Assembly (NCBI GenBank): GCA_020628915.1
Contig: JAHDEI010000004.1
Span: 1-52,614 of the forward strand
Source: Minisyncoccota bacterium
Lineage (GTDB): Bacteria; Patescibacteriota; Minisyncoccia; Phycocordibacterales; GCA-2747955
DNA length: 52,614 nucleotides
Direction of reading: 5' to 3'
Below the pieces are notes generated by a model, which was given only the letters and a program-made list of their open reading frames with translations, was not told the DNA's origin and ran no database searches. Each line of letters begins with the position of its first letter. The stretch's first letter is position 1. Made by a program: the position numbers and the translations under genes. Of the stretch, positions 2,413-44,631 are shown in pieces.

Positions 2413-2626
2413 ATTTCTCTCCTTCCATGAGTAGCAGGATGCCTCCTGACCGGTCACTCCGCCGGATTTAAACATCCACACCATTGCAGATATTTTCTAA
2501 AATATATCATAGGGTATTTTTAGGTTTTGTCAAATAATATGAATTTTGTTACAAAAAGAGAATAGCATCAAATTAGAATTTTCATTGATATAATTAGTGC
2601 AGGTTATTTTATAAAAGGAGGTGACA

Positions 2627-5758: not shown

Positions 5759-6481
5759 TTACAGTTTTTTCCAAAGGAGTTTAAATATTTTTTCTTGGAA
5801 CCGAGCAATTTTTTCTGATTCAATAATGAACGCCGCTTTTGAATCATAATCAACCATTGCAATTTTTGGCCCATAAATGAGGAACATGAGATTGTCCTCA
5901 AACAGGTCAAACGCAGGGGGGACTGCTTTGTAGAACTTTTCAAGTGTATCTTTTTTGCGAAGTTTTTTAGATGCGCTGGTTATAATTTTTTGTTCGAGAC
6001 GTTTTTTGTCTCTGATCTCTGCGTATGCCGCATATTCTTCCGGCCGCACGCTCGCGTCCGTTTTGGATGTATATCGAAAATAGGTTCCTTTGTATGGCAC
6101 AGTAGCAACTACGTCTTTGAACACATGATTAACACCTGCTCGACCCTCCAAGAATTTGATCTCTGGTTTTTCGTGGTTGTGGTTGTACTCTTCCTCTAGT
6201 TCAGAAAGTCCTTTTTGAATGAGCCCTTGTTTTTTGAGGTAGTGTCGCTCGAGATGTGTGGGGGATACCGCTTCGTATAAAACACTTTTGCCCTCCCTAA
6301 TTTCACCCAACAATCCTCTATTTACCATTTCTGGCAACTCTTTATACAGGCCGGGCCTATGTAGGCCAGTTTTTCTTGATAGTTTTGATATACGAGCTGG
6401 GCCATTTTGCAAAAGCTCCAAATATATTGCCGCTTCGTTCTCTGACAGACCAATTGTCGTTAAAAGTTCTTGATATTCCAT
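5759..6481 (-). CDS. TrmB-like winged-helix transcriptional regulator, paralogue B
   Basis: HTH IGLSENEAAIYLELLQNGPARISKLSRKTGLHRPGLYKEL. Aligns along its whole length with paralogue A. Confidence 0.8.
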   Translation of the reverse strand: MEYQELLTTIGLSENEAAIYLELLQNGPARISKLSRKTGLHRPGLYKELPEMVNRGLLGEIREGKSVLYEAVSPTHLERHYLKKQGLIQKGLSELEEEYNHNHEKPEIKFLEGRAGVNHVFKDVVATVPYKGTYFRYTSKTDASVRPEEYAAYAEIRDKKRLEQKIITSASKKLRKKDTLEKFYKAVPPAFDLFEDNLMFLIYGPKIAMVDYDSKAAFIIESEKIARFQEKIFKLLWKKL

Positions 6482-6950: not shown

Positions 6951-7129
6951 GTTCAGACAAGAAAACAGGGAATTATTGGGTAGAAGGCTACGATCGTTTC
7001 GAAGGAACTTACTACACATGCATTACATATGTCTCGAAAGCAGAAGCAGAAAAATATATCGCGGAGAAAGAGGCAAATCCAAATGGATGTCCAAATCTTT
7101 GCGACTTGTATTACCTCCGAAGTCATTAA
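6947..7129 (+). CDS. Hypothetical small protein (60 aa)
   Basis: ATGA start/stop overlap with the preceding gene (translational coupling). MSSDKKTGNYWVEGYDRFEGTYY.. Confidence 0.45.
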   Translation: MSSDKKTGNYWVEGYDRFEGTYYTCITYVSKAEAEKYIAEKEANPNGCPNLCDLYYLRSH

Positions 7130-7146
7130 ATAGAAAGGAAAACAAC

Positions 7147-7707
7147 ATGGCCCTCTATAGACCAGGTCAAAATACAACACTCAATCAAGTGATCTTATTT
7201 GCCACGATGGTACATGGATCTCAGGTGAGAAAGGGCAACGAACACCTTCCATACATCGTTCATCCGTTGGATGTGATGCAGGAAGTTATCTACTACTCTG
7301 GTCTCTCTGTAGAGAAGCTAGCTCTTGCTGGTCCGGTCGCGGCACTACACGACACAGTCGAGGACACTGTCGCGACCATAGAACAGATAGAAGAGCAGTT
7401 CGGAAAAGAAATTGCCCAGGGTGTAGCCGCCCTCACTAAGAACGAAGAGCTTGATTGGGAAGAGCGCAAAGCCGACTCTCTCAAGCGGCTCAAAGCCTCT
7501 CCTAATTGGGTTAAATGTGTGAAACTTGCTGACCGAGTCTCTAATCTGAAAAACTTTCCCGCCATGTGGGACAGAAAGAAGATCGAAGAGTATTTGAAAG
7601 AAGCAGAAGACCTTGCCGAAGCGCTAGGAAGCGCGTCAGTAGGATTAAAGGCCAGACTGTTATCAAGAGTGTCTGAGGCCCGCATGATTCTCTCAATCAG
7701 AGGATAG
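7147..7707 (+). CDS. Stand-alone HD-domain protein, SpoT/Mesh1-like (p)ppGpp hydrolase family
   Basis: HGSQVRKGNEHLPYIVHPLDV ... AALHDTVEDT is the RelA/SpoT-type HD hydrolase signature. There is no synthetase domain. I chose ATG 7147 (after AAAGGAA) rather than the ORF-track start at 6976. Confidence 0.75.
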   Translation: MALYRPGQNTTLNQVILFATMVHGSQVRKGNEHLPYIVHPLDVMQEVIYYSGLSVEKLALAGPVAALHDTVEDTVATIEQIEEQFGKEIAQGVAALTKNEELDWEERKADSLKRLKASPNWVKCVKLADRVSNLKNFPAMWDRKKIEEYLKEAEDLAEALGSASVGLKARLLSRVSEARMILSIRG

Positions 7708-24885: not shown

Positions 24886-25101
24886 ATGGCTGATATTCAA
24901 GCACTATGCATGAGTTGTAGGGAAGAAGTGGACGGAAAGTCAAAACCTACGATGCAGACTATGCAAAACCCACAAGTAGGACGAATGAAAGATAAAGAAG
25001 GTAACGAAACTAATCGTTACTCTGCTCAAGGTACTTGCGGGACATGTAATGGAAAGATGTTCAAATTCCTTTCAAAGGATGTTGCAGAATCAATGATGTA
25101 A
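24886..25101 (+). CDS. Small four-Cys zinc-ribbon protein (DUF5679-like)
   Basis: 71 aa with a CMSC ... CGTC pair and the G-T-C-x-x-C-N-G-K-M-F-K-F pattern typical of small zinc-ribbon proteins of Actinobacteria and CPR. Confidence 0.6.
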   Translation: MADIQALCMSCREEVDGKSKPTMQTMQNPQVGRMKDKEGNETNRYSAQGTCGTCNGKMFKFLSKDVAESMM

Positions 25102-25173: not shown

Positions 25174-25201
25174 TTGACATAATTAAATTTGAATGTATAA
25201 T
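25174..25201 (+). promoter_or_regulatory. Near-consensus sigma-70 promoter P1
   Basis: TTGACA (25174-25179), 16 nt spacer, TATAAT (25196-25201) preceded by TG. Confidence 0.6.
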
Positions 25202-25282: not shown

Positions 25283-25507
25283 ACACTTACTAACACAATA
25301 TCCGCGAGTGAAGTCCCCAGGTGCATAGGGAGCCGTCACTCTTGGGTATTCTCAATACACAAGAGTGATCTTTGAAATGAGATGTACATTCATAATTTAA
25401 ACGATTTATTTGAGATACTGTAAACTTTATGGTATAAAACCTCACGTAAAGAATTATTCTTTTTGTACATTGAAATAAAAGTAAACAAATAGTTATTGGA
25501 GATTCTC

Positions 25508-26329
25508 ATGAATCAAACACAGTCAAAATTAGCAAATTACGACCTTTTAGGTCTAATTGGCGAGACTGCGGACTATCGTGTATATGCTGCATATTGTAAA
25601 AGTGATAGGCGGGAATATTTTCTCAAAATCGCTTCGACAACTGCACATAATGGCATGTTAGAACGTGAAGCATTTGTATTGCGTGATCTCCGTTCAGAAA
25701 TGGAGGAAATTAACAGGCGATACAAAAGATCATCTGGATCAAAGAAAGGTTTGGGCTATAAACGGTGTTTTCCTGAATTGATAGATACATTTATATCTAG
25801 CGAGCAAGGAAACAGACGAGTGAATATCATTGCAATTTACGGGGCAGAATCTATCAAGGATCTGGTTCCAATTGAACAATGGCGTACTCGTGAGCATAAA
25901 CGTATTGATCCCAAATCAAGTGCGTGGATGATGGGAAGACTCCTCAAGATCTTAACGTTCACCAACATCAACGGTGTTGTGAACGAGAAAATCAATGGAG
26001 GAAATATTCTCGTGAATCCCTTTGAACATCATGTTGCACTATTTGATTGGACCCAGGCCCGTTATGTAAACGGAACTGTGCCCAAAAAAATTATTAAACA
26101 TGAAATAATGCAGGCAGCGCAACAAGTCGTCCTCGCTCTTGGGGGAGATCTACAAACAGGAGCGCTACCGCAGAGCGATCAACTCGTCGATAATCGATAT
26201 GCTGATTTCTTGAAACAATTAATGGATGGAAAAATTTCAAATTCGGATCATGCTGGAGAGAAATTTTACCTTCTCTTAGAAGACATCTGGGAGAAAGAAT
26301 TTCATCCGTTTACCACACATAACATCTGA
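25508..26329 (+). CDS. Protein-kinase-fold protein with a degenerate catalytic loop (candidate pseudokinase or atypical kinase)
   Basis: Strand-3 Lys in YFLKIAS, helix-C Glu in LEREAF, GVVNEKINGGNILV aligning with G-x-x-H-R-D-L-K-P-x-N-I-L-V (HRD becomes NEK, Asn kept), and FDW in place of DFG. GGAG lies 6 nt before ATG 25508. Confidence 0.6.
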   Translation: MNQTQSKLANYDLLGLIGETADYRVYAAYCKSDRREYFLKIASTTAHNGMLEREAFVLRDLRSEMEEINRRYKRSSGSKKGLGYKRCFPELIDTFISSEQGNRRVNIIAIYGAESIKDLVPIEQWRTREHKRIDPKSSAWMMGRLLKILTFTNINGVVNEKINGGNILVNPFEHHVALFDWTQARYVNGTVPKKIIKHEIMQAAQQVVLALGGDLQTGALPQSDQLVDNRYADFLKQLMDGKISNSDHAGEKFYLLLEDIWEKEFHPFTTHNI

Positions 26330-26350
26330 CCCCATACAAGGAGAATAGAA

Positions 26351-27475
26351 ATGGGAAAACATACGTTTACACGTACGGCATATGCCGCAACAATGAGCAC
26401 TGCAAAAAAAGCAGGCTCAGCAACACACAGAGGTGAAGAACGAATACGTCGTGGCCAAGGCCTTGACCCTCTTGTTGATCCGGCCGGCAACGGTCTGATT
26501 CGCCGCTCAATGGCGAGAAAAGATCAGCGCGAGGATGGCTTGTGGGAGATGACAGTGGGCACACCCATGCTCGTCGAAACACTCTTGGATACTACAGGTT
26601 CGATGGGAAGCAATGTTCGCATAGCTCTTGATCGACTGCCGCATCTCTATGACCTACTTAAAGAAAGTGACCGAGCAGTCTTGGATCGATACGATCTACA
26701 GATGATCACCTCAATTTTTGGTGATGTGCGCGACGAGTATATTCTGAACCGATCACATGCTGAAATGGGAGACAAAATCGCCGAACAAATGACGATGATG
26801 TACCCAGAAGGAGGCGGAGCCGGCAATGGGAAAGAAGACCCACAATATGGCATATTTGCAGCCGCATACTTAACTGCTGCTGAAACAAATGCCTACGGGC
26901 TTAAGACTTATCATTTTACTATTTCTGATGAGCCTATTTACGAAGAATATGACACCAATACACTCATTCGTGTATTTGGTGACACAGTCTTTGAAAAGGT
27001 TACAGAAAACGGTCACCCAATTTCTCGTGATGAATTACCCGACGTACAACAAGTGATTAATGATTTGCTCACACGAGCAAACGCATTCTTCTTGCAAGTT
27101 GATAATCGGACACCCGTCACAGAACAGTGGTCTCGTTTATACGGTAATGAGAGAGTTATTGCTTTGCCTGATGTAAGGCTACTTCCTCAGGTACAAGCTG
27201 CGGTAATCGGCTTAACCGAAAGCGTTTTGGATCTTGAGACGCTACAGGATTTCCTTGTAGCCAACAAAGTTTCAAAAACAGCAGCAAAGCAAATCGCTCG
27301 ATCTGTTTCTGGTATTCCAATTGGAGCACAGGCCGCTTTACCCGCTTTTGACAAAATCCTCAATGCAGGAGCTTTGTTTAAAAACAAGCGTGATATCAAA
27401 CCTGTTGGTCATCGTGATGATCCAGGTATGGCTATCGACGCAAAGCAGCCTGCCGAGTCTGGCGCCTGGTTATAA
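26351..27475 (+). CDS. von Willebrand factor A (vWA) domain protein with a MIDAS motif
   Basis: LLDTTGSMG (DxTGS MIDAS), a later Thr/Asp positions and FTISDEP. A basic N-terminal extension of about 75 aa. AAGGAG RBS. Confidence 0.7.
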   Translation: MGKHTFTRTAYAATMSTAKKAGSATHRGEERIRRGQGLDPLVDPAGNGLIRRSMARKDQREDGLWEMTVGTPMLVETLLDTTGSMGSNVRIALDRLPHLYDLLKESDRAVLDRYDLQMITSIFGDVRDEYILNRSHAEMGDKIAEQMTMMYPEGGGAGNGKEDPQYGIFAAAYLTAAETNAYGLKTYHFTISDEPIYEEYDTNTLIRVFGDTVFEKVTENGHPISRDELPDVQQVINDLLTRANAFFLQVDNRTPVTEQWSRLYGNERVIALPDVRLLPQVQAAVIGLTESVLDLETLQDFLVANKVSKTAAKQIARSVSGIPIGAQAALPAFDKILNAGALFKNKRDIKPVGHRDDPGMAIDAKQPAESGAWL

Positions 27476-27492
27476 CCAAATAGGAGGTGACC

Positions 27493-28872
27493 ATGAAAAA
27501 ACTATACATGGTTACTGATCTTGGTCCTGGTGATGGAGGCAAAGGTGGGGTAGTTCACAAACTATCTCATATGTCTGGTGCCCACACTATCGTAAAGGTA
27601 GGGGGGGCACAAGGCAGCCACGGTGTTCGTACATCCGCTGGTGATGCATTTGCATTTAGTCAGTTTGGCTGTGGAACATTCGAAGGTGTTCGTACTCATA
27701 TTTCGCCACGGTTTCTTATGGATCCCGAAGGGATCTATAGTGAGGGCATGGCACTACGTTATGAGTCGGGAGTAGATAATCCGTGGGCGTTGTTGTCTAT
27801 TGATGAATCTACTCTTTGTAAAACTCCATTCGATGGAATTGTCTCGAGGATAAAGGAGCTCGCGCTCCGTGATAACCCTCGAGGCACTATCGGAACAGGA
27901 GTCGGACAAGCCTATCGTAGAAACCAGTTGCGTCCCGATCTTTCTGTTTTTGCGTGTGATTTATATTCACCAGATCTCAGAGACAAACTCGAGATCATTC
28001 GTGAATACACAATAGACCTTCTGAACCCATTCGTTGAGGGAGACTTTTTCCCAGACGACCAGCAGCAGCTCAGCAGAGATTTGTCTTTGTTGAATGATCC
28101 TGGCCTCATCGATCATGTTATTAATCGATGGAGATTTGTGGCAAAAGAATGTCAAATTGTTGATACGGATTATTTCGCAAATGATTTGTTAGCTAAAGAC
28201 GGGATTGTGGTGGTTGAGAGTTCGCACGGCATCCTTACAGATTGTTATACCGGATTCCACCCTCATACCAGTGCAATTCGCACATTGCCTCATTTCACTA
28301 AGGCGATGTTCGAGCAGGCCCGGTATGACGGAGAAATAGTAAGCATCGGTGTTCATCGTGCTTATCAAATTCGTCATGGCGCAGGTCCAATGCCAACCCA
28401 CGATCCACAGATGGGGGAACGATTGCTGCCTGGCAGCAACAAGGACTCTAATCGGTGGCAGGGTGACGTTCGTGTGGGGCCTCTTGATCTTGTTGCTATG
28501 CGTTATGCATTAGCAGCGAGCGGAGAAGGTGCATACGATGGTCTTGCAATTACCTGGTTTGACCAAGTTCAGAAAAATGGACAATGGCAGTATGCAAACA
28601 AGTACGAGGGACCTCTTGATAATCAGTATTTTACTGAGTCAGGAGATATTCGTCTGCGTGTTGGTGATGATCGGGCACAACTTGATCATCTTGCTGCCTT
28701 AACTAAAAAACTGCAGGCCGTTAGGCCTACGGTAGAAACGGTTCCGCTCAATAGCGGTGCTACTCTGGACCAGCAGTTTGATTTGGTTGCAGAGACTCTT
28801 GGTGAACACCTTGGTGTTCCCGTGCGCATGATGTCGTTTGGCCCAACCGAACAAGACAAAATGTGTAAATAA
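27493..28872 (+). CDS. Adenylosuccinate-synthetase (PurA/PurZ) superfamily ligase, highly divergent
   Basis: Collinear with PurA: GDGGKGG (GDEGKGK), GGAQGSHG (GGHNAGH), GTIGTGVGQAY (GTTGRGIGPAY), ESSHGILTD (EGAQGTLLD), AYQIRHGAGPMPT (AYSTRVGAGPFPT), and FGPTEQD (TGPDRTE). The Asp-binding TTGRRRR and guanine-binding TKLD motifs are altered. AGGAGG RBS before ATG 27493. Confidence 0.85.
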   Translation: MKKLYMVTDLGPGDGGKGGVVHKLSHMSGAHTIVKVGGAQGSHGVRTSAGDAFAFSQFGCGTFEGVRTHISPRFLMDPEGIYSEGMALRYESGVDNPWALLSIDESTLCKTPFDGIVSRIKELALRDNPRGTIGTGVGQAYRRNQLRPDLSVFACDLYSPDLRDKLEIIREYTIDLLNPFVEGDFFPDDQQQLSRDLSLLNDPGLIDHVINRWRFVAKECQIVDTDYFANDLLAKDGIVVVESSHGILTDCYTGFHPHTSAIRTLPHFTKAMFEQARYDGEIVSIGVHRAYQIRHGAGPMPTHDPQMGERLLPGSNKDSNRWQGDVRVGPLDLVAMRYALAASGEGAYDGLAITWFDQVQKNGQWQYANKYEGPLDNQYFTESGDIRLRVGDDRAQLDHLAALTKKLQAVRPTVETVPLNSGATLDQQFDLVAETLGEHLGVPVRMMSFGPTEQDKMCK

Positions 28873-28903
28873 CTTTAACTTTACAGAAGAAAGGAGAACC
28901 GTC

Positions 28904-29875
28904 ATGGAAGACGCTCTCAAGAAAAAACTAACCGGAAAAGACGTTGGCATGACAAAGGATCAAGTTAAAAAACTTGAAACTGAAGCCGGCGTTCAAACCG
29001 AAGCAGACCTGGCAATGCTTTCTGATACTGAAATTAAACAGTACTCAGGCTGTACTCCAGTCGTTGCAAAAAAGGCACAAGCATCGGTACAACCTAAAGA
29101 GCCCGCAGCTGATCCCAAGGCCGAACTTGACGATGGGGCTGCACCAAGCTCTGCTCACGTTAATGGTTTTGCCCAACAGTTGGGGATTGATCCGATGATG
29201 GCCATGATGTTCTTTAACGGAACTCTTGGGGATGATATGGATCTCTCATCAATGATGCCGATTTCAATGGTTGTTGAAGGTTACAATCCAAAAGTCCGGA
29301 ACATGTTTTTAATGGCTATGGGTCATTTTGAACGACGATTCGGAGTACCAATTGTTGTAATTGACAGCAACGGGGGTATTAATAAGGCTCTAACTGCCGA
29401 ATATATTCAATCGTTGGAAGAAGGCCATGACCCAATGGAAAGCGCAATCTATCTTGACGGAGACGGCGAGCCGTATGAGCTCATTCGTGTCGGCGTTGAT
29501 GCACAAAGTGTATACGATGCTGATCCACTCAAGCCAGAAAAAGCCTTGCCTAAAAATGATATAGGCACAGGCCGAATTAAATGGAAAGGTGTCCCGCTTG
29601 AGGTACGACAAGTTGCATACTATGCCGTTACCCAGACTAAAGAGCTTGATCCATCAAATGATGCTCATCTCACTTGGTTGCGTGATAATGTAACAAAAGA
29701 CTCTAAGCGTCTTATGTTCCATGGACAAGCGCCAAAAGCGATTGCAGCCTACAATGATGCAGCTCGCACCGGTTCTCTGCCAACACTTCGTGTCATGCTT
29801 TCTCGTGGCCCACGCCGCAAAGAAATCATGCCTAGACGTCGAAGAAGGCCAGCTGGTTTAGCCGCTGATCTTTAA
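28904..29875 (+). CDS. Hypothetical protein (323 aa) with an Arg-rich C-terminal tail
   Basis: AAGGAG RBS 7 nt before ATG 28904. Last gene of the operon. Ends in RGPRRKEIMPRRRRRPAGLAADL. No family recognised. Confidence 0.65.
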   Translation: MEDALKKKLTGKDVGMTKDQVKKLETEAGVQTEADLAMLSDTEIKQYSGCTPVVAKKAQASVQPKEPAADPKAELDDGAAPSSAHVNGFAQQLGIDPMMAMMFFNGTLGDDMDLSSMMPISMVVEGYNPKVRNMFLMAMGHFERRFGVPIVVIDSNGGINKALTAEYIQSLEEGHDPMESAIYLDGDGEPYELIRVGVDAQSVYDADPLKPEKALPKNDIGTGRIKWKGVPLEVRQVAYYAVTQTKELDPSNDAHLTWLRDNVTKDSKRLMFHGQAPKAIAAYNDAARTGSLPTLRVMLSRGPRRKEIMPRRRRRPAGLAADL

Positions 29876-29881
29876 ACATAC

Positions 29882-29911
29882 AACCAGACAAGGCAACTTG
29901 TCTGGTTTTTC
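29882..29911 (+). terminator. Intrinsic terminator of the four-gene operon
   Basis: AACCAGACA-aggcaact-TGTCTGGTT followed by TTT. Confidence 0.8.
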
Positions 29912-29944
29912 TTTGAAATAAAAACACTCCGCTGCTGGAGTATT

Positions 29945-31828
29945 TTAAACATTTGGCAAAAAGACACGCTTGAGGAAAATTTCCGATGCTAGGCGTCTAT
30001 ATTGTGGATCATAAAATGCAGCATGACCATCAATGGCGTCTCCATGTTTAGTGTCCATCGGGCTTTTGATTGGGTAGTATCGTTCAAAACCTTTGTGGAG
30101 CAGTCTATATTGAACAGCGTCTCGCTCTATTTCCTCGAGCCATCGATCCTTGGTTGGTTTTCCATCAAGTTCTGCCTCAGGCGACTGTAGATAGTTAGGA
30201 AGAAGGTCATGGTAAAGAGTTTTGATGCTTTCACGGTCACCTTTCCATGCAGAACCAAGTAAGACATGCGCCCAGCTGCTGCTGCCGTCTGAGATCGTTG
30301 GATTTTCCCAGTCGTGAACTGATAGTCCGTTCTCGTTTTGATCTAACCAGAATTGTACAGCTTTTCCATCAATTTTTTCATGAGAGAAGACATTTTTTAA
30401 AGATTCTTCTAGTCGCTCTTTTTCTTCTCTTGGTGTACCTGGTTTGATAAAAACAGCTACGTCAGCGTCAGCTTCTGAGCGACCGTACCCTTTTAGTTGG
30501 GATCCAAATACTAATGTTGCAGGGTAGACGTGCTGCCCGAGATACGGATCGTTTTTGATTTGTTCCGACATAGATTCTACTTCTGCCAAGAAAGGGGCAA
30601 TTGATTCTAGGTTTTTCGAAAAGTCACCATTGAGATTTGGAACGTTAATCCCTGCTTGGTCCAGGACTTGTTTGCTAACAATTCCTTGGCTATGTAAATG
30701 AGAATACAATTTTGACAATGCGTCGTATGTTTCTGCAGTTTTTGATAGTTCTGTTGCAGAGGTGACCCAGTCTTTGTTTTGTTCAAATAGATCTGGATTA
30801 TCTGATGTCGCGATAGTAAGTGCTTCGACACATGCGACCAGTGAATCAACATCAAGAGAAGCTGCATCAGGCAATGAAGAGCCATTGAGGAGGTTTTGGC
30901 TAACAGTTGACGCAGCCTCTAGAATCGCTTTTTCAAAAGCTTGTTTTTTCAGCCACGCGTCACGTGCCACGGTTGTTCCCGCATCCTCTCTCTGGTCAAT
31001 CTCATGAATCTTTGTAGAAAGAATTTCTAACAGTTCTATTGTTTTTACTGGATCCATGGATTCATTGCTGTCTGTTTCAAATGTTTGCGCCGTAAGCTCG
31101 TGATACGAACCATTAAGGTGTATGTCGCGGGAGTCTCGCAACAGATCGATTTCTGCTTCAGAAATATTTCCCATATCCAACATTACTTTAAATGAATCGA
31201 TGATTCCTTGTTTTACCAAAATATCATCACTCTTTTCTGCGTACTGCACGGCTTCCTGGAAACTCATGTGTCCGTGTTCTACCAGCCCTGGAATCAAATG
31301 AGTAGCTTTGACTACTCGTGGATGGTCCTCTGTACGCAATTCAGGTTCCAAAATATTTCCATCAACAAAATTTGCCCGAACGTCATACGCTGTTAGTTGT
31401 GATTCCCATGCACGCCTGTAACTCTCAGAGAATGATTGTGCCGCTTTGGCTACAAGTGGGCTTTCGACATTGGAATCCTTTGAGGGAATTAATTCAAACG
31501 GCATATAAAGAGCGAGTCGACCATAGCCTGGTTCTTTGTCCATATACTGAGCAATACGAGTGAATGTTTCAGCAAGAGCTATTTCACTTATCTCACCATC
31601 AGCAAAGGAATCCATAACGTTTTTGCCAACTGGGACCGCCTGGACCAGCTGCTTATACGACTCTATGGCTGCGCTTTGTTCCTGAACTTGTTTGAGAAAC
31701 TCAGGGTTTTGAGAAATAGAAGTAGGCCAAATTTCAGCAGCTAGTTTTGGGTTAGTGAGAGACTCAATTGCTGGTTTTTCGAATGCTTCGATAGGAGGCT
31801 GCTCTTTGTTTTTAATAGACTCGATCAT
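29945..31828 (-). CDS. Large protein (627 aa) with a C-terminal Pol-beta-type nucleotidyltransferase motif
   Basis: FGSQLKGYGRSEADADVAVF (nt 30449-30508) fits the G-S-x(n)-D-x-D NTP_transf_2 signature. About 440 aa at the N-terminus are unassigned. Start set at ATG 31828, 6 nt after a TATAAT, so it is a leaderless candidate. The ORF-track GTG at 31846 lies inside the promoter. Confidence 0.65.
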   Translation of the reverse strand: MIESIKNKEQPPIEAFEKPAIESLTNPKLAAEIWPTSISQNPEFLKQVQEQSAAIESYKQLVQAVPVGKNVMDSFADGEISEIALAETFTRIAQYMDKEPGYGRLALYMPFELIPSKDSNVESPLVAKAAQSFSESYRRAWESQLTAYDVRANFVDGNILEPELRTEDHPRVVKATHLIPGLVEHGHMSFQEAVQYAEKSDDILVKQGIIDSFKVMLDMGNISEAEIDLLRDSRDIHLNGSYHELTAQTFETDSNESMDPVKTIELLEILSTKIHEIDQREDAGTTVARDAWLKKQAFEKAILEAASTVSQNLLNGSSLPDAASLDVDSLVACVEALTIATSDNPDLFEQNKDWVTSATELSKTAETYDALSKLYSHLHSQGIVSKQVLDQAGINVPNLNGDFSKNLESIAPFLAEVESMSEQIKNDPYLGQHVYPATLVFGSQLKGYGRSEADADVAVFIKPGTPREEKERLEESLKNVFSHEKIDGKAVQFWLDQNENGLSVHDWENPTISDGSSSWAHVLLGSAWKGDRESIKTLYHDLLPNYLQSPEAELDGKPTKDRWLEEIERDAVQYRLLHKGFERYYPIKSPMDTKHGDAIDGHAAFYDPQYRRLASEIFLKRVFLPNV

Positions 31829-31867
31829 ATATGTATTATATGACACAGTCTGTCAACAAGCAAAAAC

Positions 31868-35538: not shown

Positions 35539-36183
35539 GTGAGAAATCAACGTACAACAGAAGAAGAAATGATTATTCAAAGGATAAAAGAGCCTTTAAA
35601 TATGATGGGCTTTTCGAGCTTTAAAATAGACGAGTCTGTTGTAGACAGACCAGATATTGTATTTGAATCCAGCGGAAAGAGGATTGGAGTAGAGATTAGC
35701 CGTTTGGATTATGAGGCATACTGTAAATTCATTAATCATCAGGTCGAACCACCATATTTAAAAACATCAGAAATTACCATTAACTTAGAAAAATTATTGG
35801 GTAATGTGCTGGGCAAAAAGAATAAAGACCACAAGAACTTTATTAAAGAAAGAAATTTAGATGAATGTTGGCTTGTGTTACATAACGACGTCTTTGAATT
35901 TAAAGACACAAAGGAGCAAGGAGTACTGTCTAAAGATTGGTTTGAAAAATATTCTCATCTTATCCTGCAAGAGAAAGGTTGTTTGTTTGAACGCGTTTTG
36001 TTTAACTTAGAGCATCCAGGTGGCTGGTCATATTTATTTAATAAGAGTGAGCGGAAAAAACAAGAGGAATTTAATTACAAGTGGCCAGTAATGACGTGCC
36101 ACCAGGGCGTGATAAATGTTACTGAGCCAAAGTCATACAAAATAGATATTCGGAAACCGAATGAAAAGAAGAGGTTTTACTAG
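35539..36183 (+). CDS. Hypothetical protein (214 aa)
   Basis: Clean ORF, but the start is uncertain (GTG 35539 or ATG 35578). RPDIVFES..IGVEISR could be a PD-(D/E)xK-like nuclease core, but this is weak. Confidence 0.5.
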   Translation: MRNQRTTEEEMIIQRIKEPLNMMGFSSFKIDESVVDRPDIVFESSGKRIGVEISRLDYEAYCKFINHQVEPPYLKTSEITINLEKLLGNVLGKKNKDHKNFIKERNLDECWLVLHNDVFEFKDTKEQGVLSKDWFEKYSHLILQEKGCLFERVLFNLEHPGGWSYLFNKSERKKQEEFNYKWPVMTCHQGVINVTEPKSYKIDIRKPNEKKRFY

Positions 36184-36408
36184 ATTGCTAGTACGTTTGT
36201 GCTACTATTTTGTATACAGCTCCTCATACTACTGAGCACCGCCTAACCCCTCATTTGAGGATATGGCGGATAAGACCAAAAGAAGTAAAAAACCCATCGT
36301 AAGGGTTTGCTTCTTTTGGCCATGTCGGGAAACTGGCATGGAGGCTTAGGCCTCGCCTTGCGGTGGGCTTTTTGTATGAAAAATCCATTGCGTTAATAAA
36401 TAATAACT

Positions 36409-36672: not shown

Positions 36673-37422
36673 ATGATTAGAAAACAAGTCGAGTCTGTTT
36701 TAATGAATCCGGTCGAGCCAGAATTATTTGCGGAGTCTCTTTTAGAAAGTGCCTCACAAAAAGCAGAATACAATAAGGTTTGGGTTTGGTCTCATATAAT
36801 CTTAAGAGAAGATTTTACAGATTTTATTAAAGATTTGTTTGGTTTAGCCAAGAATACAGAAACCGACTATCCTACATTAAAGAAGGTAATTACAACGTAT
36901 CAGGAAAGATATGCTGATAGTGAGTTCTATAAACTTTTAAGCGTTCACAAAAAGGAGTTATTTGATGATATCTTTTTGGCAATCATCGCAGGCCATGCAA
37001 GGATATGGCACGAGATTAAAACCCTATGTTTTGTGCCTATTGCATACCACGAAGGAATACATATGACCCACAACTCCGAAACGGAAGAAACTATTCTCAC
37101 CATAAAAGATTTCGTAACACCCACAGAATTGAGAGAGTTTATATTTGAGACCTGGGACCTAGCAATGGGGAATGCCAGAGGAGGCATCAACACTCCAAGA
37201 AAGATTTTAAGAAAGAAAACTAGTAAAAATCATTTAAGGAACCTTCAAATTTATAATAAGTACAGTGATTTTCGTGAAGAAGGTTTTAATGTGACGGAAT
37301 CTGAAGCTAAGACATCAACATGGGTCGAGAAGAATTTTCCAATCAAAGATAACGAGTTTGCGTTAGACACCGTTCGGAAGATTGTTAAAGAAATAGAAAA
37401 AAGAAAAAAGCTTATCAACTAG
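36673..37422 (+). CDS. Hypothetical protein (249 aa)
   Basis: Clean ORF. No family recognised. Confidence 0.55.
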   Translation: MIRKQVESVLMNPVEPELFAESLLESASQKAEYNKVWVWSHIILREDFTDFIKDLFGLAKNTETDYPTLKKVITTYQERYADSEFYKLLSVHKKELFDDIFLAIIAGHARIWHEIKTLCFVPIAYHEGIHMTHNSETEETILTIKDFVTPTELREFIFETWDLAMGNARGGINTPRKILRKKTSKNHLRNLQIYNKYSDFREEGFNVTESEAKTSTWVEKNFPIKDNEFALDTVRKIVKEIEKRKKLIN

Positions 37423-38386: not shown

Positions 38387-40000
38387 ATGAACGAACAGAA
38401 TATAAAATATTTCATCTATGCACGTAAGTCTCAAGAATCAGACGAGAGACAAGTGCAATCCATAGATGACCAAATACACATCGCAGAAAAGATTGCTCGT
38501 CAGTACGGGCTTGAAGTTGTTGATGTATTCAGAGAATCTAAGTCAGCAAAGAAACCATATAACCGTCCTGTGTTTTCTGAGATGTTACAAAGAATTAAAG
38601 CGGGAGAAGCAACAGGTATTATTACCTGGAAATTGGACAGGCTTGGACGTAATCAGCTTGAGAGCGGTATGGTTGGACAAATGTTGGAGGATAGAGAGAT
38701 TGAAGTTATTAGAACTCCAGAGAAAGAATATCGCCCAGAAGATAATGTGGTTATTTACAGCATTGAAACTGCAATGGCTACGCAGTATTCAAAAGACTTA
38801 TCGAAGAACGTGAAGCGTGGGCAATCAGGAAAGATTAAGAGAGGCTGGTATCCAGGTCGTGCCCCTATGGGTTATTTAAACTGCCCGACTACTAAGGAAA
38901 TTATTCCAGACCAAGAACGGTTTGATATGTTACGAAGAGCTTGGGATTTGATGCTCACTGGACTATATTCGCCGCCAGAAGTAATGGATATATTGAATGA
39001 AGAGTGGGGTTTTACGACAGTAAAGCGAGGAAAAACCGGAGGTGGAAAAATCAGTAAAGCAAATATTTACAAATTCTTTGGAAATGTTTTTTACACGGGA
39101 ACTCATTTTGAGTGGAATGGCATATTGCACACAAACGGGCAACACAAACCAATGGTTAGCATGGAGGAGTTTGAAGAAGTACAGAGGATTATGGGTAAGA
39201 CTGACCGTCCCCGTACTTACAAACACGAGTATGCCTACAAAGGAGTATTTCATTGTGATTGTGGTTGCTCAATTACGAGCTATGTTAAAAAAGAGAAATA
39301 CAACTACTACAAGTGCACCAAACGTAAAGTAGGTATCGTTTGTGATGCTAAACAAATTAGCGAGAGAAAACTAGAAAAAGAGATTATTAAAAAAATTGAA
39401 GATTTAGTAATCCATCCCCAGTTTTTAGAATGGTCATTCAAAGCCATTGAAGAGTGCAGCAAGGCTGAGTTAAAGACTGACCAAGACATAGTTACTAGTC
39501 GAATAAATGCAGTCATTCAAAAGCGCGACCAGATTGGTAAGTTAAATGAGATGCTCTCCAAAAGTTACATTTCTGATGAGGAATATCTTGAATCAAAAGA
39601 GAGATTGCAAAAAGAGATAGCTGAACTTGAAGCCCAGAAAGATAAAGAGATTAATTTAAGGGAAAAGAAAGAAGAGTTAAAAGACGTCTTTGTATTCATG
39701 TCACAACTTGTGCAGATTCTAGAAGGAAATAGTGGTGACTCAAAACGAAAAGCACTATTTTCAATTGGTGAAAATCACATCCTCCAAAATACTGAGCCTA
39801 TACTGAATTTACATAGTTTTCTAAGACCAGTTCGAACCTCGTATGAAAGTCTCTATTCTGACTACTATAATGTTCGAACTCGAGAAAATGGCTCTGTTAA
39901 GCTCCGAGAAGCTGATTTGGAGGCTATTAATCTCCTTTGGTGCGGGTGGGGAGAATCGAACTCCCGACTGATCCTTGGCAAGGACCTATTTTACCACTAA
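38387..40000 (+). CDS. Large serine recombinase (integrase). The true C-terminus is uncertain because the frame stays open into the antisense tRNA-Gly.
   Basis: Resolvase catalytic domain (YARKSQESDE.. Ser nucleophile, KLDRLGRN), recombinase domain, zinc ribbon CDCGCS..YYKC, and a coiled-coil region. The last ~20 codons (39938-40000) are the reverse complement of the tRNA. Confidence 0.9.
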   Translation: MNEQNIKYFIYARKSQESDERQVQSIDDQIHIAEKIARQYGLEVVDVFRESKSAKKPYNRPVFSEMLQRIKAGEATGIITWKLDRLGRNQLESGMVGQMLEDREIEVIRTPEKEYRPEDNVVIYSIETAMATQYSKDLSKNVKRGQSGKIKRGWYPGRAPMGYLNCPTTKEIIPDQERFDMLRRAWDLMLTGLYSPPEVMDILNEEWGFTTVKRGKTGGGKISKANIYKFFGNVFYTGTHFEWNGILHTNGQHKPMVSMEEFEEVQRIMGKTDRPRTYKHEYAYKGVFHCDCGCSITSYVKKEKYNYYKCTKRKVGIVCDAKQISERKLEKEIIKKIEDLVIHPQFLEWSFKAIEECSKAELKTDQDIVTSRINAVIQKRDQIGKLNEMLSKSYISDEEYLESKERLQKEIAELEAQKDKEINLREKKEELKDVFVFMSQLVQILEGNSGDSKRKALFSIGENHILQNTEPILNLHSFLRPVRTSYESLYSDYYNVRTRENGSVKLREADLEAINLLWCGWGESNSRLILGKDLFYH

Positions 40001-40011
40001 ACTACACTCGC
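39938..40011 (-). tRNA. tRNA-Gly (anticodon GCC), CCA encoded
   Basis: Sense strand GCGAGTGTAGTTTAGTGGTAAAATAGGTCCTTGCCAAGGATCAGTCGGGAGTTCGATTCTCCCCACCCGCACCA. It forms a canonical cloverleaf with anticodon loop TTGCCAA and T arm GGGAG-TTCGATT-CTCCC. There is one A:C mismatch in the acceptor stem (position 4:69). Confidence 0.9.
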
Positions 40012-41702: not shown

Positions 41703-42638
41703 TTACGCAGGGATGCTTTGTAATCGCAGGTACTCTTCGAGTATTTTCCCATGATCAGAATACATTTGATTCGTCGGTGCGTCATTTTTGGAAACAACAA
41801 GCGGTTCGGTTTTGTCCGGTTCACCACGAGGAGTTCCAGCAACAGTAGCAACGAACACTGTTGTAAAGTATTCAACACCACTTTGTTTTGTGCGAGGATC
41901 ACGACCAGGAGTGTCATATCGACCAAACGGTTTAATTGAGGTAATAGACAGGCCTGTCTCTTCTTGTGTTTCACGGATCGCAGCGGCCTGAGCACTTGTG
42001 TCTTCTGGGTCAATTTTCCCACCAATTAATGCTGCTTGGTTTGTGTCCAAACGCTTAATTAAGACCAAATCACCAGTGTCTTCATGTGTTGCGATAACGT
42101 CAACACATTCAATAATTGGATTTGGCAGCTTGCCGTAGGTGACAAGTGATTGTACGGGAGCATCACCCAAAACATGGCGACCACCTAATTCTGCAAGCTC
42201 TATAACGAATGCGAAACCAGCAACGGTCCCCCCAAGCTTTTCAACCAACTGGGAAGCGGCTCGAGCGGTACCGCCGGTTGCAAGCAAGTCATCAATTACC
42301 AAGACCGTGTCGTTGGCGTCAACTGCATGCTTCTGCATCTCAACCGTGTTTGATCCATATTCTAGATCATAGGACACCGAAACGGTTTCTCCTGGCAACT
42401 TGCCAGGCTTGCGCACCATAACCACTGGCACGTTGATTTCAATCGACAATAGTGTCGCGAATAAAAATCCACGAGCATCCAGGGCTGCAATTTTTGTGAC
42501 CTTGCCTCGCCACTTTTGTGCAAGCGAGTCAGTAATGAAACGAAGTGCGCTGGGTGTCAGTACTGATCCAATATCTTTAAATGCAATTCCTTCTTTTGGG
42601 AAGTCGTGCACCGTTGTGATTATGTTTTTGAGATTCAT
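41703..42638 (-). CDS. apt: Adenine phosphoribosyltransferase fused to a C-terminal Nudix hydrolase domain
   Basis: N-terminal 170 aa carry DFPKEGIAFKD, ALDARGF, and the VLVIDDLLATGGTA PRPP loop. The C-terminal part has the Nudix box GGKIDPEDTSAQAAAIRETQEETG (nt 41952-42023). Confidence 0.85.
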   Translation of the reverse strand: MNLKNIITTVHDFPKEGIAFKDIGSVLTPSALRFITDSLAQKWRGKVTKIAALDARGFLFATLLSIEINVPVVMVRKPGKLPGETVSVSYDLEYGSNTVEMQKHAVDANDTVLVIDDLLATGGTARAASQLVEKLGGTVAGFAFVIELAELGGRHVLGDAPVQSLVTYGKLPNPIIECVDVIATHEDTGDLVLIKRLDTNQAALIGGKIDPEDTSAQAAAIRETQEETGLSITSIKPFGRYDTPGRDPRTKQSGVEYFTTVFVATVAGTPRGEPDKTEPLVVSKNDAPTNQMYSDHGKILEEYLRLQSIPA

Positions 42639-42767: not shown

Positions 42768-43781
42768 CTACATATACTGACTGATGCTTCCGCCTTTCTG
42801 GCATTGTTCTTTAATTGCATCTGCAAGCAGTGCATCACAATCAACCACAGTAAGCCAGTCGCTGTGTTTCTCCATAAATTTTTTGGCACGAGGAATTGTA
42901 TTTGTTATATACACAGGAATTCCAGCCCGACCAAATTCTTCAACTGACTTTTCATCACTGAAGATACCATGGGTAGCACACATAATGACATCTTTTGCAC
43001 CAAGTCCTTTTATGCGAAGAGCAGCTTTTCTAGCTGTTCCTCCAGTATCAATCATGTCGTCATACATAATGACCGTCTTGCCTTTAACGCTTGGCCCGAT
43101 GACTTTTCCGATCTCAACGTTTTTGGAATCACGTTTTTTTTCAAAGACACAAACCGGTGCGTTAAACATGTGTTTGGAAAAGCGGTCTGCTCGTACACTG
43201 CTGCCGAAATCTGGCGCCACAATACGTAGGTCCTTTTGGTCTACGTTTAGTTTTTTCTTGAGAACATCTGCAAATAAGCGCCGAGAATTGAGGTTGTCCA
43301 GAGCCCCTTTAAAGAATCCTTGAGCCTGTTCAGTATGCAAGTCCATAGTGATGATGTGTCTTACCAAATCATATACCGCGACAAGGTTAAAAAAAGCTGA
43401 ACCCGAGATGGGACTGCGCGGCTCATCCTTTCGATCCTGTCTTTGATAGGGGATAAATGGTAGAACCAACGTTATATCTTGAACTGATGCTCGAGTAAGC
43501 ATGTCACAGGTTAGGTACATCATCATTGTTTGGATATTTGGGTTTGGCCACTGCATAGGCATGAGCAAAAATGCTTTCTGTCCTCGAATGGTATGAGGGC
43601 AGGTGGGTTTGAGCTCAAGACTTGTGAACTCTTGTTGCTTTATTTGGTACAGAGGCATATCCAGTCCGTACTGACGATTCAGTATTTTTTGTATTCGTTT
43701 GTCCATACCATGCATCCCAGGTGTCGACAGTAAAACAAAGTCTCCGTTGGGATTTCCATTTCTTTTTGCTGGTTTGGTCAT
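42768..43781 (-). CDS. prs: Ribose-phosphate pyrophosphokinase
   Basis: PYQRQDRK, DLHTEQAQGFF, and VIMYDDMIDTGGTA (PRPP binding loop). ATG 43781 lies 6 nt after GGAG. Confidence 0.92.
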   Translation of the reverse strand: MTKPAKRNGNPNGDFVLLSTPGMHGMDKRIQKILNRQYGLDMPLYQIKQQEFTSLELKPTCPHTIRGQKAFLLMPMQWPNPNIQTMMMYLTCDMLTRASVQDITLVLPFIPYQRQDRKDEPRSPISGSAFFNLVAVYDLVRHIITMDLHTEQAQGFFKGALDNLNSRRLFADVLKKKLNVDQKDLRIVAPDFGSSVRADRFSKHMFNAPVCVFEKKRDSKNVEIGKVIGPSVKGKTVIMYDDMIDTGGTARKAALRIKGLGAKDVIMCATHGIFSDEKSVEEFGRAGIPVYITNTIPRAKKFMEKHSDWLTVVDCDALLADAIKEQCQKGGSISQYM

Positions 43782-43887
43782 GTAATACTCCATCTTGTAA
43801 ATGATCAAATTCCTCGCGAAGTATAGCATGTTGACAGATCAAGTTACAATATTTGTAAATATGTAACAGAAAAGATACAATAAGCGC

Positions 43888-44631
43888 ATGAATTTCGAAG
43901 AACTTTTTAGAAGGCTTGGGTGTCCTAAACATACAGAAAAAGTATATACAGACTTGTTGACTCATCCCGTTAGTACTCCTACTGAAATTGAAACAAGAGC
44001 AAAGCTTCATAGGCCGGTGGTCTATCGAACACTCTCGAGCCTCTTAGAATTAAATCTCATATCAGAAACAAAAGAGGGGAAGAGATCGGTGTATTCAGCA
44101 CGAGGCCCTCAGAGCATCAAGCGAGCATTTTTGGATGTGTACGCAGATGTAAACACCGCAATTGAACAAAAGTTTTCAGGATATGTTTCTGAAGAAAAAG
44201 ATCAGGATGTGCTGGGAGCCGTGCAAGTATTTTCTGGCCCAGATGCGGTTACAAAAGTTTATGAAGATATTATCGCTCATACAAAAAAAGGAGAGACGTG
44301 GTATCGATATACGTCTGAGCAAGATTTGGATTTTGTAAACTCACTCTTACCAAAGGGGTATAGAAAAGATCGAGATCACAAAAAGTTAGAAAGAAAGGTT
44401 ATCTCGAACAGATCATCTGCTTCTCAGAAAAAGCCGAGACTAGAGCGATTTATTAAGATTATTGATCAAGACCACACAGGAGCTGGGTTTGATCAGAACT
44501 TTATTCAATTAGTGTATGGGTCGAAACTTGCGTTTATTGATCTTAACAAAATGCATGCGTTTGTTATTAGTAATAAGAACCTCGCAGAGTTTCAGAAAGT
44601 TATATTTCGAAAGTTGTACAAAAAACTATAA
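43888..44631 (+). CDS. TrmB-like winged-helix transcriptional regulator, paralogue C
   Basis: Collinear with paralogues A and B, ending in ..FQKVIFRKLYKKL. A TGACAGAT box lies at 43832-43839 in the divergent spacer shared with prs. Confidence 0.8.
   Translation: MNFEELFRRLGCPKHTEKVYTDLLTHPVSTPTEIETRAKLHRPVVYRTLSSLLELNLISETKEGKRSVYSARGPQSIKRAFLDVYADVNTAIEQKFSGYVSEEKDQDVLGAVQVFSGPDAVTKVYEDIIAHTKKGETWYRYTSEQDLDFVNSLLPKGYRKDRDHKKLERKVISNRSSASQKKPRLERFIKIIDQDHTGAGFDQNFIQLVYGSKLAFIDLNKMHAFVISNKNLAEFQKVIFRKLYKKL

Follow-up and report, generated by a model that had tools for sequence, protein, structure and literature searches.

The stretch of DNA analysed here, referred to as the window, comprises 52,614 nucleotides from a Minisyncoccota bacterium (Patescibacteriota; contig JAHDEI010000004.1), and it carries a cassette of five genes, designated A to E, whose third member, gene C, encodes a protein of the adenylosuccinate synthetase (PurA) superfamily. 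The open reading frame (ORF) of gene C spans positions 27487 to 28872 of the forward strand and would give 461 amino acids from a GTG codon; from the ATG at 27493 the product has 459 amino acids and begins with MKKLYMVTDLG. Given that the homologues begin at the same point (MKKxY.VTDLG), the ATG is taken as the right start, in agreement with the coordinates 27493-28872 of the initial annotation, which had been made from the sequence of this DNA. The product matches PF00709 (Adenylsucc_synt) with 111.8 bits and an E-value of 4.2e-32, its residues 13-455 being aligned with positions 8-414 of the 416 of the profile, and the best structures in the PDB are adenylosuccinate synthetases (E 1e-10 to 1e-7). 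The database label of the gene is adenylosuccinate synthase. From these matches we consider gene C to encode a genuine full-length, very divergent member of the PurA superfamily. All the motifs quoted in the initial annotation are present in the translation (GDGGKGG, GGAQGSHG, GTIGTGVGQAY, AYQIRHGAGPMPT, FGPTEQD, ESSHG, DSNRWQGDVRVG, TWFD and LYSPDLRDKL...IDHV), and alignment with E. coli PurA (432 amino acids) bears out the changes that it had read: His at the position of Gln224, the loss of the aspartate loop TTGRRRR, and TWFD in place of TKLD. The last substitution had been listed among the changes in residues that define PurA chemistry; TWFD nevertheless keeps the Asp, equivalent to Asp333, that reads guanine. 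Of the insertions of tens of residues also described, about 15 residues were located in the helical subdomain and about 17-20 in the C-terminal domain, but most of the LYSPDL... segment quoted as inserted is homologous to the helical subdomain of PurA.

The residues kept and changed were surveyed in 235 family members aligned with E. coli PurA, of which 78 come from Patescibacteria genomes, 77 from metagenomes and 80 from viral contigs; the roles ascribed to the E. coli residues in the PurA literature were assumed to apply to the gene C family. In PurA, Asp13, the catalytic base, and His41, the catalytic acid, serve to move the γ-phosphate of GTP to the 6-oxo group of the purine nucleotide. 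Both residues, together with Gly12, Lys16, Gly17 and Asp333, are kept in 98-100% of the members; Gly15 is kept in 92-100%, Ser414 in 87-97% and Gly416 in 95-100%. Because the P-loop, the catalytic Asp and His, and the guanine pocket (Asp333, SxGP) are retained, GTP is probably still the donor used by the gene C enzyme. The different nucleotide donor argued for in the initial annotation is thus not supported, given that Lys16, His41, Asp333 and Ser414-x-Gly416 are kept in 87-100% of the members. At the aspartate loop, Thr300 is replaced by Trp, Tyr or Phe, Thr301 by Gln and Arg305 by Val or Phe throughout the family, and Arg303 is deleted in 100% of the members; in gene C itself, positions 300, 301, 303 and 305 correspond to Trp, Gln, a deletion and Val. 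The aspartate pocket is gone in all 235 members, and the suggestion that a different amine is used gains support from this.

The positions that contact IMP in PurA show a mixed pattern. Asn38 is replaced by Gln in 98-100% of the members, Val273 by His in 100%, and Arg143, which completes the IMP phosphate site in PurA, is deleted in 97-100%. Thr129 is changed to Ile or Val in Patescibacteria and to Cys elsewhere, and Arg131 is lost across the family. In gene C, the contacts Asn38, Thr129, Arg143', Gln224 and Thr239 read Gln, Ile, a deletion, His and Ser, so that only the hydroxyl of the Thr239 type is kept. The replacement of Gln224 by His, noted from the start for gene C, is restricted to the subclade formed by Patescibacteria and a few relatives that include fusion proteins, Gln being kept in the remaining family; basal phage members retain Asn38, Thr129 and Gln224. 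A different acceptor, which had also been proposed, is therefore supported in part, insofar as the contacts of the IMP 5'-phosphate are partly rewired. The former substrate pockets of the family have acquired invariant residues of their own, namely Gln38, His273, the pair W/Y/F300-Gln301, and Arg306, and because the replacements are themselves invariant the acceptor site seems to have been remodelled and not to have decayed. Judged from these alignments, selection acts on the GTP site and on the chemistry of phosphoryl transfer, and the aspartate site has been abolished.

The relationship of gene C to PurA and to PurZ, the enzyme of the 2-aminoadenine phages, was evaluated with model scores, residue signatures and a tree. 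The scores of gene C against the PurA equivalog models lie 6- to 16-fold under every cut-off (PRK01117, 64 bits vs a cut-off of 402; TIGR00184, 53.3 vs 395.55; PRK13783, 45.6 vs 445; PRK13785, 44.4 vs 700; and the archaeal PRK04293, 25.3 vs 368). A search of 1.84 billion representative proteins returned 4768 matches at E<=1e-3 and 1094 at E<=1e-30; the close homologues (54-69% identity) are named solely from Patescibacteria, also known as the candidate phyla radiation (CPR), including Uhrbacteria, Spechtbacteria, Pacebacteria and Saccharibacteria, and across Patescibacteria classes gene C is 42-69% identical. The phylogenetic placement that had been proposed as a check was carried out with a distance-based, unbootstrapped neighbour-joining tree, which was read only in combination with model scores and residue patterns, and gene C falls outside canonical PurA as well as outside PurZ. 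One group of the tree comprises canonical PurA, with the E. coli protein and two PurA-like sequences from phage-collection contigs; another is formed by the PurZ-type proteins of Acinetobacter phage Bhz20 and Microbacterium phage Jera. The third group is large and holds gene C; proteins of Vibrio and Rhizobium phages lie close to its base, and it is divided into a big Gln224 clade that includes the cluster C1 mycobacteriophages and a His224 clade with the Patescibacteria and three fusion proteins. In the Bhz20 and Jera proteins position 13 is Ser, and Asn38, Thr129, Gln224, Thr301 and Arg305 are retained, the opposite of gene C. The Bhz20 PurZ gene has DatZ, MazZ and DpoZ neighbours and no gene B neighbour, and its product reaches 19 bits against the hidden Markov model (HMM) of the gene C family; the Jera protein is annotated as PurA-like and its gene adjoins a DNA polymerase gene. 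Domain scans of the window ORFs detected no datZ, mazZ or dpoZ in the cassette or elsewhere in the window. Housekeeping PurA and PurZ were both rejected as identities for gene C on account of the model scores, the residue pattern and the tree position.

Like PurA (EC 6.3.4.4), the gene C family shows the full-length fold, the GDxGKG P-loop, Asp13, His41, Asp333 and Ser414-x-Gly-Pro, and these shared features make a GTP-dependent O-phosphorylation of a lactam carbonyl the likely first step of the gene C enzyme. In contrast to PurA, the aspartate loop has become N-x-[WYF]-Q-G, the substitutions described above have altered the IMP contacts, there is no link to pur genes, and the enzyme is paired with a von Willebrand factor A (vWA) protein. 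PurZ/PurZ0 are comparable in being phage-borne PurA offshoots with altered acceptor specificity, and a PHROG label is shared; however, PurZ keeps the aspartate pocket, has Ser13 and travels with DatZ/MazZ/DpoZ, none of which applies to the gene C family. These comparisons lead us to regard gene C as neither an adenylosuccinate synthetase nor a PurZ, and as part of a separate large clade of the PurA superfamily whose members would be the enzymes of a conserved module.

The module was recognized in Patescibacteria by applying two strict peptide patterns to the GTDB species, each represented by a single genome, which gave at least 154 genomes, and 80 loci from many CPR classes were kept. In these 80 loci and in five others the order is constant: A (~275 amino acids), B (~370), C, D (325-420) and the convergent E (~630). 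B and C are present in 86 of 86 loci, A is found upstream of B in 79 of 86 and E convergent downstream in 78 of 86, the misses being mostly due to contig ends; B lies directly upstream of C in each CPR locus with sequence there. The genes that flank the five-gene cassette are unrelated between loci. The absence of purB and other purine genes beside gene C holds for its neighbours, and no gene for de novo purine synthesis was detected in the 45 window ORFs scanned. The context is, as had been stated, not one of purine metabolism, but the initial annotation overlooked the conserved operon, whose partners, the vWA protein above all, provide the main clue to the substrate. In 60 of 62 CPR loci (among L001-L090) the G+C content of the cassette is above that of its flanks, with a median of 6.8 points; in the window the cassette (26000-30000) has 0.456-0.460 vs ~0.37-0.42 in the adjoining stretches. 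Repeated transfer or an unusually strong amino-acid constraint could account for this offset. Only three loci of the Patescibacteria clade were found in IMG/VR, one of them on a 408-kb contig, so this clade is essentially chromosomal, and the idea that it is phage-borne was rejected for that reason.

Gene B (26351..27475, forward strand) encodes a protein of 374 amino acids. The sequence searches gave no Pfam match, and nothing was obtained by comparing its profile with the PDB. Its AlphaFold2 (AF2) model has a predicted local distance difference test score (pLDDT) of 91.8, and with it Foldseek retrieved the integrin beta-I domain, the A3 domain of von Willebrand factor and the vWA domain of NorD, with E-values down to 5e-6. 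A complete metal ion-dependent adhesion site (MIDAS) is present as D80-T-T82-G-S84...T175...D193, in which D80, T82, S84 and D193 are invariant and T175 is nearly so; the model thus assigns to B a predicted vWA fold with a full MIDAS. The N-terminus of the protein is conserved as MG-x3-[WFY]-[S/D]-x3-[YH]. The initial MG is found in 100 of 117 close homologues, most of the others having a small second residue, in 46 of 49 non-CPR metagenome proteins and in almost all of the 66 viral proteins examined; for instance, the proteins of mycobacteriophage Sebata, the Rhizobium phage and the Vibrio phage begin with MGSGAWDSYTY, MGGGRFDTNAY and MGGATWNSADY, with an overall identity of ~25% to the B protein of the window. 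N-terminal extensions are essentially never present. In the AF2 model, residues 1-7 are a coil with lower pLDDT that precedes the first helix, and they would therefore constitute a flexible tail. The initiator Met is cleaved off most readily when a glycine follows it, so that mature B would begin with a free glycine amine. At the other end of the protein, the tail (window 27460-27475) is disordered, with pLDDT <50 from residue 360, and in the Patescibacteria clade it includes an invariant Trp two residues from the end; this terminal WL looks like a short docking motif.

Gene A occupies 25496..26329 of the forward strand and gives 277 amino acids from the TTG at 25496, although its true start is likely the ATG at 25508, which has GGAG before it. 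Its product is a protein-kinase-fold protein that matches phrog_3043 'kinase' (E 6.4e-13) and, by comparison of its profile with the PDB, CK2 alpha (E 1.1e-10). The ATP-binding Lys, the alpha-C Glu, Asn170 and the CK2-like DW(G)-type Asp184 are retained. The CPR clade and Sebata keep the catalytic-loop Asn, where most of the non-CPR members aligned have a His. The HRD motif of CK2 alpha is aligned to a non-conserved position, and its Asp is replaced (HGA/HGS or Gly) whether the member comes from CPR, from outside CPR or from a phage. Since the HRD Asp is replaced in all lineages, A is predicted to be a pseudokinase or an atypical kinase with non-canonical chemistry.

Gene D (28904..29875, forward strand) starts mechanically at a TTG at 28838, and its homologues begin with MEDALK, which corresponds to 28904. 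The product consists of an N-terminal domain of ~65 amino acids that resembles tandem helix-hairpin-helix motifs, (HhH)2, followed by a Pro/Ala linker, a Met/Gly-rich stretch, a conserved domain of ~200 amino acids without a recognised fold, and a basic tail (RGPRRKEIMPRRRRR). The N-terminal domain matches the RNA polymerase alpha-CTD (E 0.0023) and the Rad51 N-domain (E 0.0032). The D slot is filled in 67 loci; type D1 is present in 55, and type D2, to which the gene of the window belongs, in 9 loci besides the window. Both types have their N-terminal ~75 amino acids in common (hhalign probability 98.3%) and their C-terminal domains are unrelated. The profile of D1 gave nothing useful against the PDB. 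D1 occurs occasionally outside CPR, in L094 and in three metagenome loci.

Gene E (29945..31846, reverse strand) encodes 633 amino acids, or 627 in the database gene call, and was found only in the His224 clade. Its product is composed of a novel all-alpha N-terminal domain (~1-440), a minimal nucleotidyltransferase (MNT) domain of the Pol-beta type, and a helical C-terminal domain. The motif G448-S449...D460-x-D462 is invariant at all four positions; the matches to PF18765/PF01909 (Polbeta/NTP_transf_2) and to NCBIfam MntA are below the curated cut-offs, and the profile comparison with the PDB indicated the MNT protein HI0073 (E 0.0066). The AF2 model has a pLDDT of 91.8 and a pattern of beta-strands and helices at 440-510 that fits a Pol-beta fold; a Foldseek search with this model found no fold match in the PDB at E<1e-3. 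A HEPN protein with the Rx4-6H motif was sought beside E or within it; there was no Pfam or NCBIfam match, and the only invariant Arg/His pair of E past the nucleotidyltransferase domain is R581-x2-H584. In other lineages, the PurA-like enzyme is fused C-terminally to a full-length E, as in P0151 (1129 amino acids) and P0182 (1102 amino acids), whose E moieties are 27% identical to that of the window (E 1e-62 and 3e-61). Such end-to-end fusions point directly to a joint function of C and E. A third fusion, P0176 (700 amino acids), carries ~220 extra residues (~480-700) after the PurA-like domain; a kinase-like nature of this extension was rejected (hhalign probability 0.3%), and it has no Pfam match either. 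In Saccharibacteria of the Nanosyncoccus/rumen type (L082, L084, L085, L087, L090 and L097) E is ~394 amino acids long and its HMM alignment skips the nucleotidyltransferase core, so in some lineages, it seems, nothing but the helical parts of E has been retained.

Genes A, B and C also occur together well beyond Patescibacteria. For the Gln224 clade, a metagenome scan gave at least 492 confirmed relatives on contigs with a G+C content of 0.33-0.75, of which 80 loci were kept; of the 55 whose sequence extends far enough, 53 have B directly before C, and A was found in 37 of 42. The scan of IMG/VR gave at least 272 viral contigs, mostly of 100-500 kb, and among the 80 loci kept B is present in 77 and A in 66. 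In cluster C1 mycobacteriophages (201 records) a kinase, a B homologue, an 88-amino-acid protein and the PurA-like enzyme are encoded in a row (Sebata gp260-263); the 88-amino-acid ORF, Sebata gp262 (L006 7341-7607), sits between the vWA and the PurA-like genes. B is directly upstream of C in Rhizobium phage TM30 and in Vibrio phage pv27. A regulator of the NrtR type, with a Nudix domain and a winged helix-turn-helix (wHTH), flanks 18 CPR, 14 metagenome and 10 viral loci, and it was also found in three of three non-CPR loci inspected individually; the cassette of the window is without such a gene. In contig SRR8164864_15048 (L100) the triad lies near NADAR, Nudix and nucleoside deoxyribosyltransferase-like genes, and in Rhizobium phage TM30 (L008) genes for a hydrolase, a phosphoribosyltransferase-like protein and a cytidyltransferase are found near the triad (gp010-gp013). 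These phage neighbours hint at a link to NAD+ or ADP-ribose metabolism.

We propose that gene C, which would be neither PurA nor PurZ, stands at the centre of a conserved module in which a purine-like acceptor, activated with GTP, is passed to an amine that is not aspartate; we give this joint reading about an even chance of being correct. According to this proposal, C would use GTP to form a phosphoryl intermediate on a carbonyl of a purine-nucleotide-like acceptor, and the activated acceptor would then be transferred to the other amine. The α-amino group of the N-terminal glycine of B, bared by Met removal, is the best candidate for it, and B would thereby carry a nucleotide covalently, joined through the purine C6. 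The glycine is suggested as the new nucleophile because the ancestral PurA reaction couples the α-amine of aspartate to the purine C6, and C lacks the aspartate pocket and is genomically tied to B with its conserved N-terminal Gly. In its most specific form, the PurA-like enzyme would be a protein ligase: the 6-oxo group of IMP or GMP would be phosphorylated by GTP and attacked at C6 by the glycine amine of B, with a product of the N6-(protein-Gly1)-adenylate type, a reaction that might be called N-terminal purinylation and that we put forward as a speculative idea, more probably wrong than right by a good measure. A may be a nucleotide-binding scaffold or regulator; in Patescibacteria, E could add or extend a nucleotidyl group and D could tether the complex to DNA. 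NrtR-like repressors, where present, would couple expression to an ADP-ribose-type ligand, a control that has been proposed for other Nudix-HTH regulated systems (PMC9503650).

Several considerations weigh against this proposal. The acceptor and the amine of C are deduced solely from the PurA residues kept and lost, and the glycine idea is drawn from conservation and adjacency alone. With half of the contacts of the IMP phosphate altered, something other than a nucleoside monophosphate may be the acceptor. The removal of Met from B is assumed, a few B proteins start with MAKG, MSKG or MRTT, and the conserved N-terminus might just as well serve for docking to A, to C or to the MIDAS site. In general, vWA proteins are Mg-dependent peptide-binding co-chaperones, and B might accordingly do no more than regulate C. 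As to the biological role, the absence of a PADLOC match for C, B and D, the lack of a recognisable toxin domain and the high conservation fit a physiological role equally well.

The main rival explanation is that C is a small-molecule enzyme that aminates or substitutes a free nucleotide, with A and B acting only as regulators or chaperones. For example, IMP or GMP could be combined with ammonia or a small amine to give AMP, a modified purine nucleotide or an alarmone, or the acceptor could be derived from ADP-ribose; the setting would be nucleotide or NAD+-related salvage or counter-defence, the NrtR-like repressor switching the operon on as ADP-ribose-type ligands accumulate. A nucleotide acceptor is consistent with the conservation of Thr128/Ser, Thr239 and the ribose-facing region and with the basal phage members that have Asn38, Thr129 and Gln224; the recurrence of NrtR-like Nudix-wHTH regulators beside the module and the nucleotide- or NAD-type neighbours in phages (ribonucleotide reductase and an exonuclease in pv27, besides those of TM30 and L100) also favour this view, and Patescibacteria live on salvaged nucleotides. 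However, a small-molecule enzyme leaves unexplained the near-obligate vWA partner with its N-terminal glycine, as well as the presence in the same unit of a pseudokinase, an HhH protein and an MNT nucleotidyltransferase that is sometimes fused to C, and no lyase, kinase, phosphatase or other metabolic enzyme is conserved in the module. We therefore hold this explanation to be a serious one that is nonetheless rather improbable. A different possibility is that C, driven by GTP, acts on the vWA protein as a switch or in remodelling, in the manner of the AAA+ ATPases MoxR, CbbQ or NorQ, with hydrolysis and without ligation. Dyads of an NTPase and a vWA protein are recurrent, as in MoxR-vWA, NorQ-NorD and CbbQ-CbbO, where the vWA/MIDAS gene also stands beside the gene of an NTP-using enzyme; MoxR-vWA pairs occur in jumbo phages (PMC7824862). 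NorD is among the fold matches of B, and the GTP site of C has been conserved in full, in contrast to the two degraded substrate pockets of PurA. The module differs from these dyads in that its NTPase has the PurA fold and not the AAA+ fold, no AAA+ gene of the MoxR family was found in the cassette in 80 loci, where nothing but A, C, D and E is conserved beside the vWA gene, and the N-terminal Gly motif of the vWA protein is specific to this family. Against the switch, Asp13 and His41 are invariant and serve phosphoryl transfer to an acceptor, not plain hydrolysis, and the invariant Gln38, His273, W/Y/F300-Gln301 and Arg306 suggest a selected substrate site and not decay. A pure switch is in our opinion quite unlikely.

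The two identities suggested by existing labels are less probable still. A divergent but genuine adenylosuccinate synthetase, turning salvaged IMP into AMP in Patescibacteria, would agree with the database annotation, the full-length PF00709 match and the conserved catalytic Asp/His and GTP site; it is very hard to reconcile with model scores so far under the cut-offs, with the absence of the aspartate-binding residues in every member surveyed, with a window that lacks purB and has Apt and Prs genes for direct AMP salvage, and with the occurrence of the same clade and its vWA partner in phages. The PurZ-type reaction, in which dGMP and Asp give N6-succino-2-amino-dAMP for 2-aminoadenine DNA, finds support in the labels: the best PHROG, phrog_1211 (141 bits), is called '2-aminooxy adenylosuccinate synthetase', and RefSeq applies the same label to the mycobacteriophage homologues. 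Given the separate branch and opposite residue pattern of the Bhz20 and Jera proteins, the low score of Bhz20 against the family HMM, the lack of datZ/mazZ/dpoZ in the cassette, and the chromosomal location of the cassette in bacteria, we consider this the least credible of the explanations, with hardly any chance of being right.

Whatever the reaction, the A-B-C module behaves in these comparisons as a self-contained accessory unit apart from purine metabolism. Its role may lie in phage-host conflict or in nucleotide- or ADP-ribose-responsive regulation. The self-contained operon in varying neighbourhoods and in unrelated large phages, the swappable D domain on a constant adaptor, the MNT-type transferase and the G+C offset point to a mobile accessory or conflict-type module. 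A known anti-phage defence system was rejected because PADLOC-DB v2 gave no defence-model match for C, B or D; the weak matches obtained were those of A to the PD-T4-6 kinase (E 0.0016) and of E to PDC-S09 (E 2e-4).

Other known systems resemble the module in part. The TerY (vWA)-kinase-PP2C triad also places a vWA gene beside a protein-kinase-fold gene; in contrast, the kinase-fold protein of the module is without the HRD Asp and there is no PP2C among the conserved neighbours. The MNT/MntA proteins of the HEPN-MNT (type VII) toxin-antitoxin systems share with gene E the GS...DxD Pol-beta-type motif, and the best alignment of E is to the HI0073/MntA type. MNTs of this type nucleotidylate a partner protein. 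Gene E differs in that its MNT domain is inside a protein of 630 amino acids with an all-alpha domain of 440 amino acids, in being linked or fused to the PurA-like enzyme, and in that no HEPN partner with Rx4-6H was found in Pfam or NCBIfam searches. Finally, the NrtR-type systems centred on ADP-ribosylglycohydrolase (ARG), which have ARG and phosphatases at their core (Iyer et al. 2022, PMC9503650), likewise combine a one-component Nudix-HTH regulator and a vWA 'chaperone' near enzymes that act on nucleotide-derived moieties; the ARG enzyme, however, is not a conserved part of the module described here, and the word 'adenylosuccinate' is absent from the searched portion of that paper. Full-text literature searches found no published description of an A/B/C module, and in the portions searched of surveys of vWA/NrtR-type systems in phages, jumbo phages and NAD/ADP-ribose metabolism no PurA-like enzyme is included.

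On the present evidence gene C is best described as a new, widespread PurA-superfamily variant in an undescribed module, which is found in the genomes of at least 154 species of Patescibacteria, on at least 492 contigs from metagenomes and on at least 272 from viruses. The labels 'adenylosuccinate synthetase', 'PurA-like' and '2-aminooxy adenylosuccinate synthetase' look like annotation transfer that the residues contradict; the gene bears them in hundreds of Patescibacteria genomes and in >200 phage genomes, and reconstructions of IMP-to-AMP conversion as well as phage annotations pointing to Z-genome chemistry that depend on it are therefore probably wrong. Since the module is common in large phages and in genome-reduced symbionts, it likely matters for phage-host or symbiont-host biology. 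A PurA reaction with another amine, possibly a protein N-terminus, would be new enzymology, and N-terminal purinylation, if true, would be a previously unknown post-translational modification carried out by a widespread three-gene module. In that case the nucleotide linked to the protein could, in Patescibacteria, be extended or modified by the fused or adjacent MNT and carried to DNA by the HhH protein.

In the window, a candidate promoter for the operon, TTGACA-16-TATAAT, lies at 25174..25201 on the forward strand, ~300 nt upstream of gene A, and is recognized only by its sigma-70-like consensus match (12/12). The ~300-nt leader of gene A gave no Rfam match worth noting that would indicate a riboswitch (lowest E-value 0.027, for an unrelated sRNA). 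A hairpin that resembles an intrinsic terminator (29882..29907; 11-bp stem) separates the convergent genes D and E; it was found on both strands and is hence bidirectional. Upstream of the promoter, between it and the trigger factor gene, a 71-amino-acid Cys-rich protein with two CxxC motifs and a weak DUF5679 match is encoded (24886-25101, forward strand); this gene is not conserved beside the cassette in other loci. The remaining window is ordinary chromosome with, among others, the genes for RuvB, RuvC, MurB, a class A penicillin-binding protein, GlyRS, MetRS and trigger factor. At 6.5 kb past gene E there is a gene for a large serine recombinase (Resolvase and Zn_ribbon_recom domains; 38387-40000, forward strand), its 3' end overlapping a tRNA-Gly(GCC) gene on the reverse strand (39938-40011), and the related locus L001 has a similar recombinase ~4.3 kb past gene E. 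The cassette may lie within an integrated element, but the genes on either side vary from one locus to another.

Some other genes of the window are related to nucleotide metabolism. A fusion of adenine phosphoribosyltransferase (Apt) with a C-terminal Nudix domain (41703-42638) and PRPP synthetase, Prs (42768-43829), both on the reverse strand, are salvage genes at ~13 kb from gene C; residues 2-168 of the fusion match NF002636 with 201.5 bits and residues 179-302 the NUDIX domain, the fusion itself being unusual. Apt(-Nudix) and Prs are predicted to turn adenine into AMP by direct salvage, and the 'PurA' of this same organism would not be PurA. Three TrmB-family regulator paralogues are present within 52 kb, at 3797-4510 and 5759-6481 on the reverse strand and at 43888-44631 on the forward strand; two of them flank a 5'(3')-deoxyribonucleotidase, NT5C (4664-5266), near an AAA_28/thymidylate-kinase-like protein (2621-3763). 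A stand-alone HD domain of the RelA/SpoT family (243 amino acids; 6976-7707, forward strand), which comprises the hydrolase half only, matches TIGR00691 with 67 bits and is predicted to be a small alarmone-hydrolase-like protein. Apart from two tRNAs, the Rfam content of the whole window is a single LOOT RNA (RF03000), a full-length match at 36240-36354 on the forward strand (77.2 bits vs a gathering score of 46.4), which occupies the intergenic gap between the ORFs at 35539-36183 and 36673-37422, both without a Pfam match.

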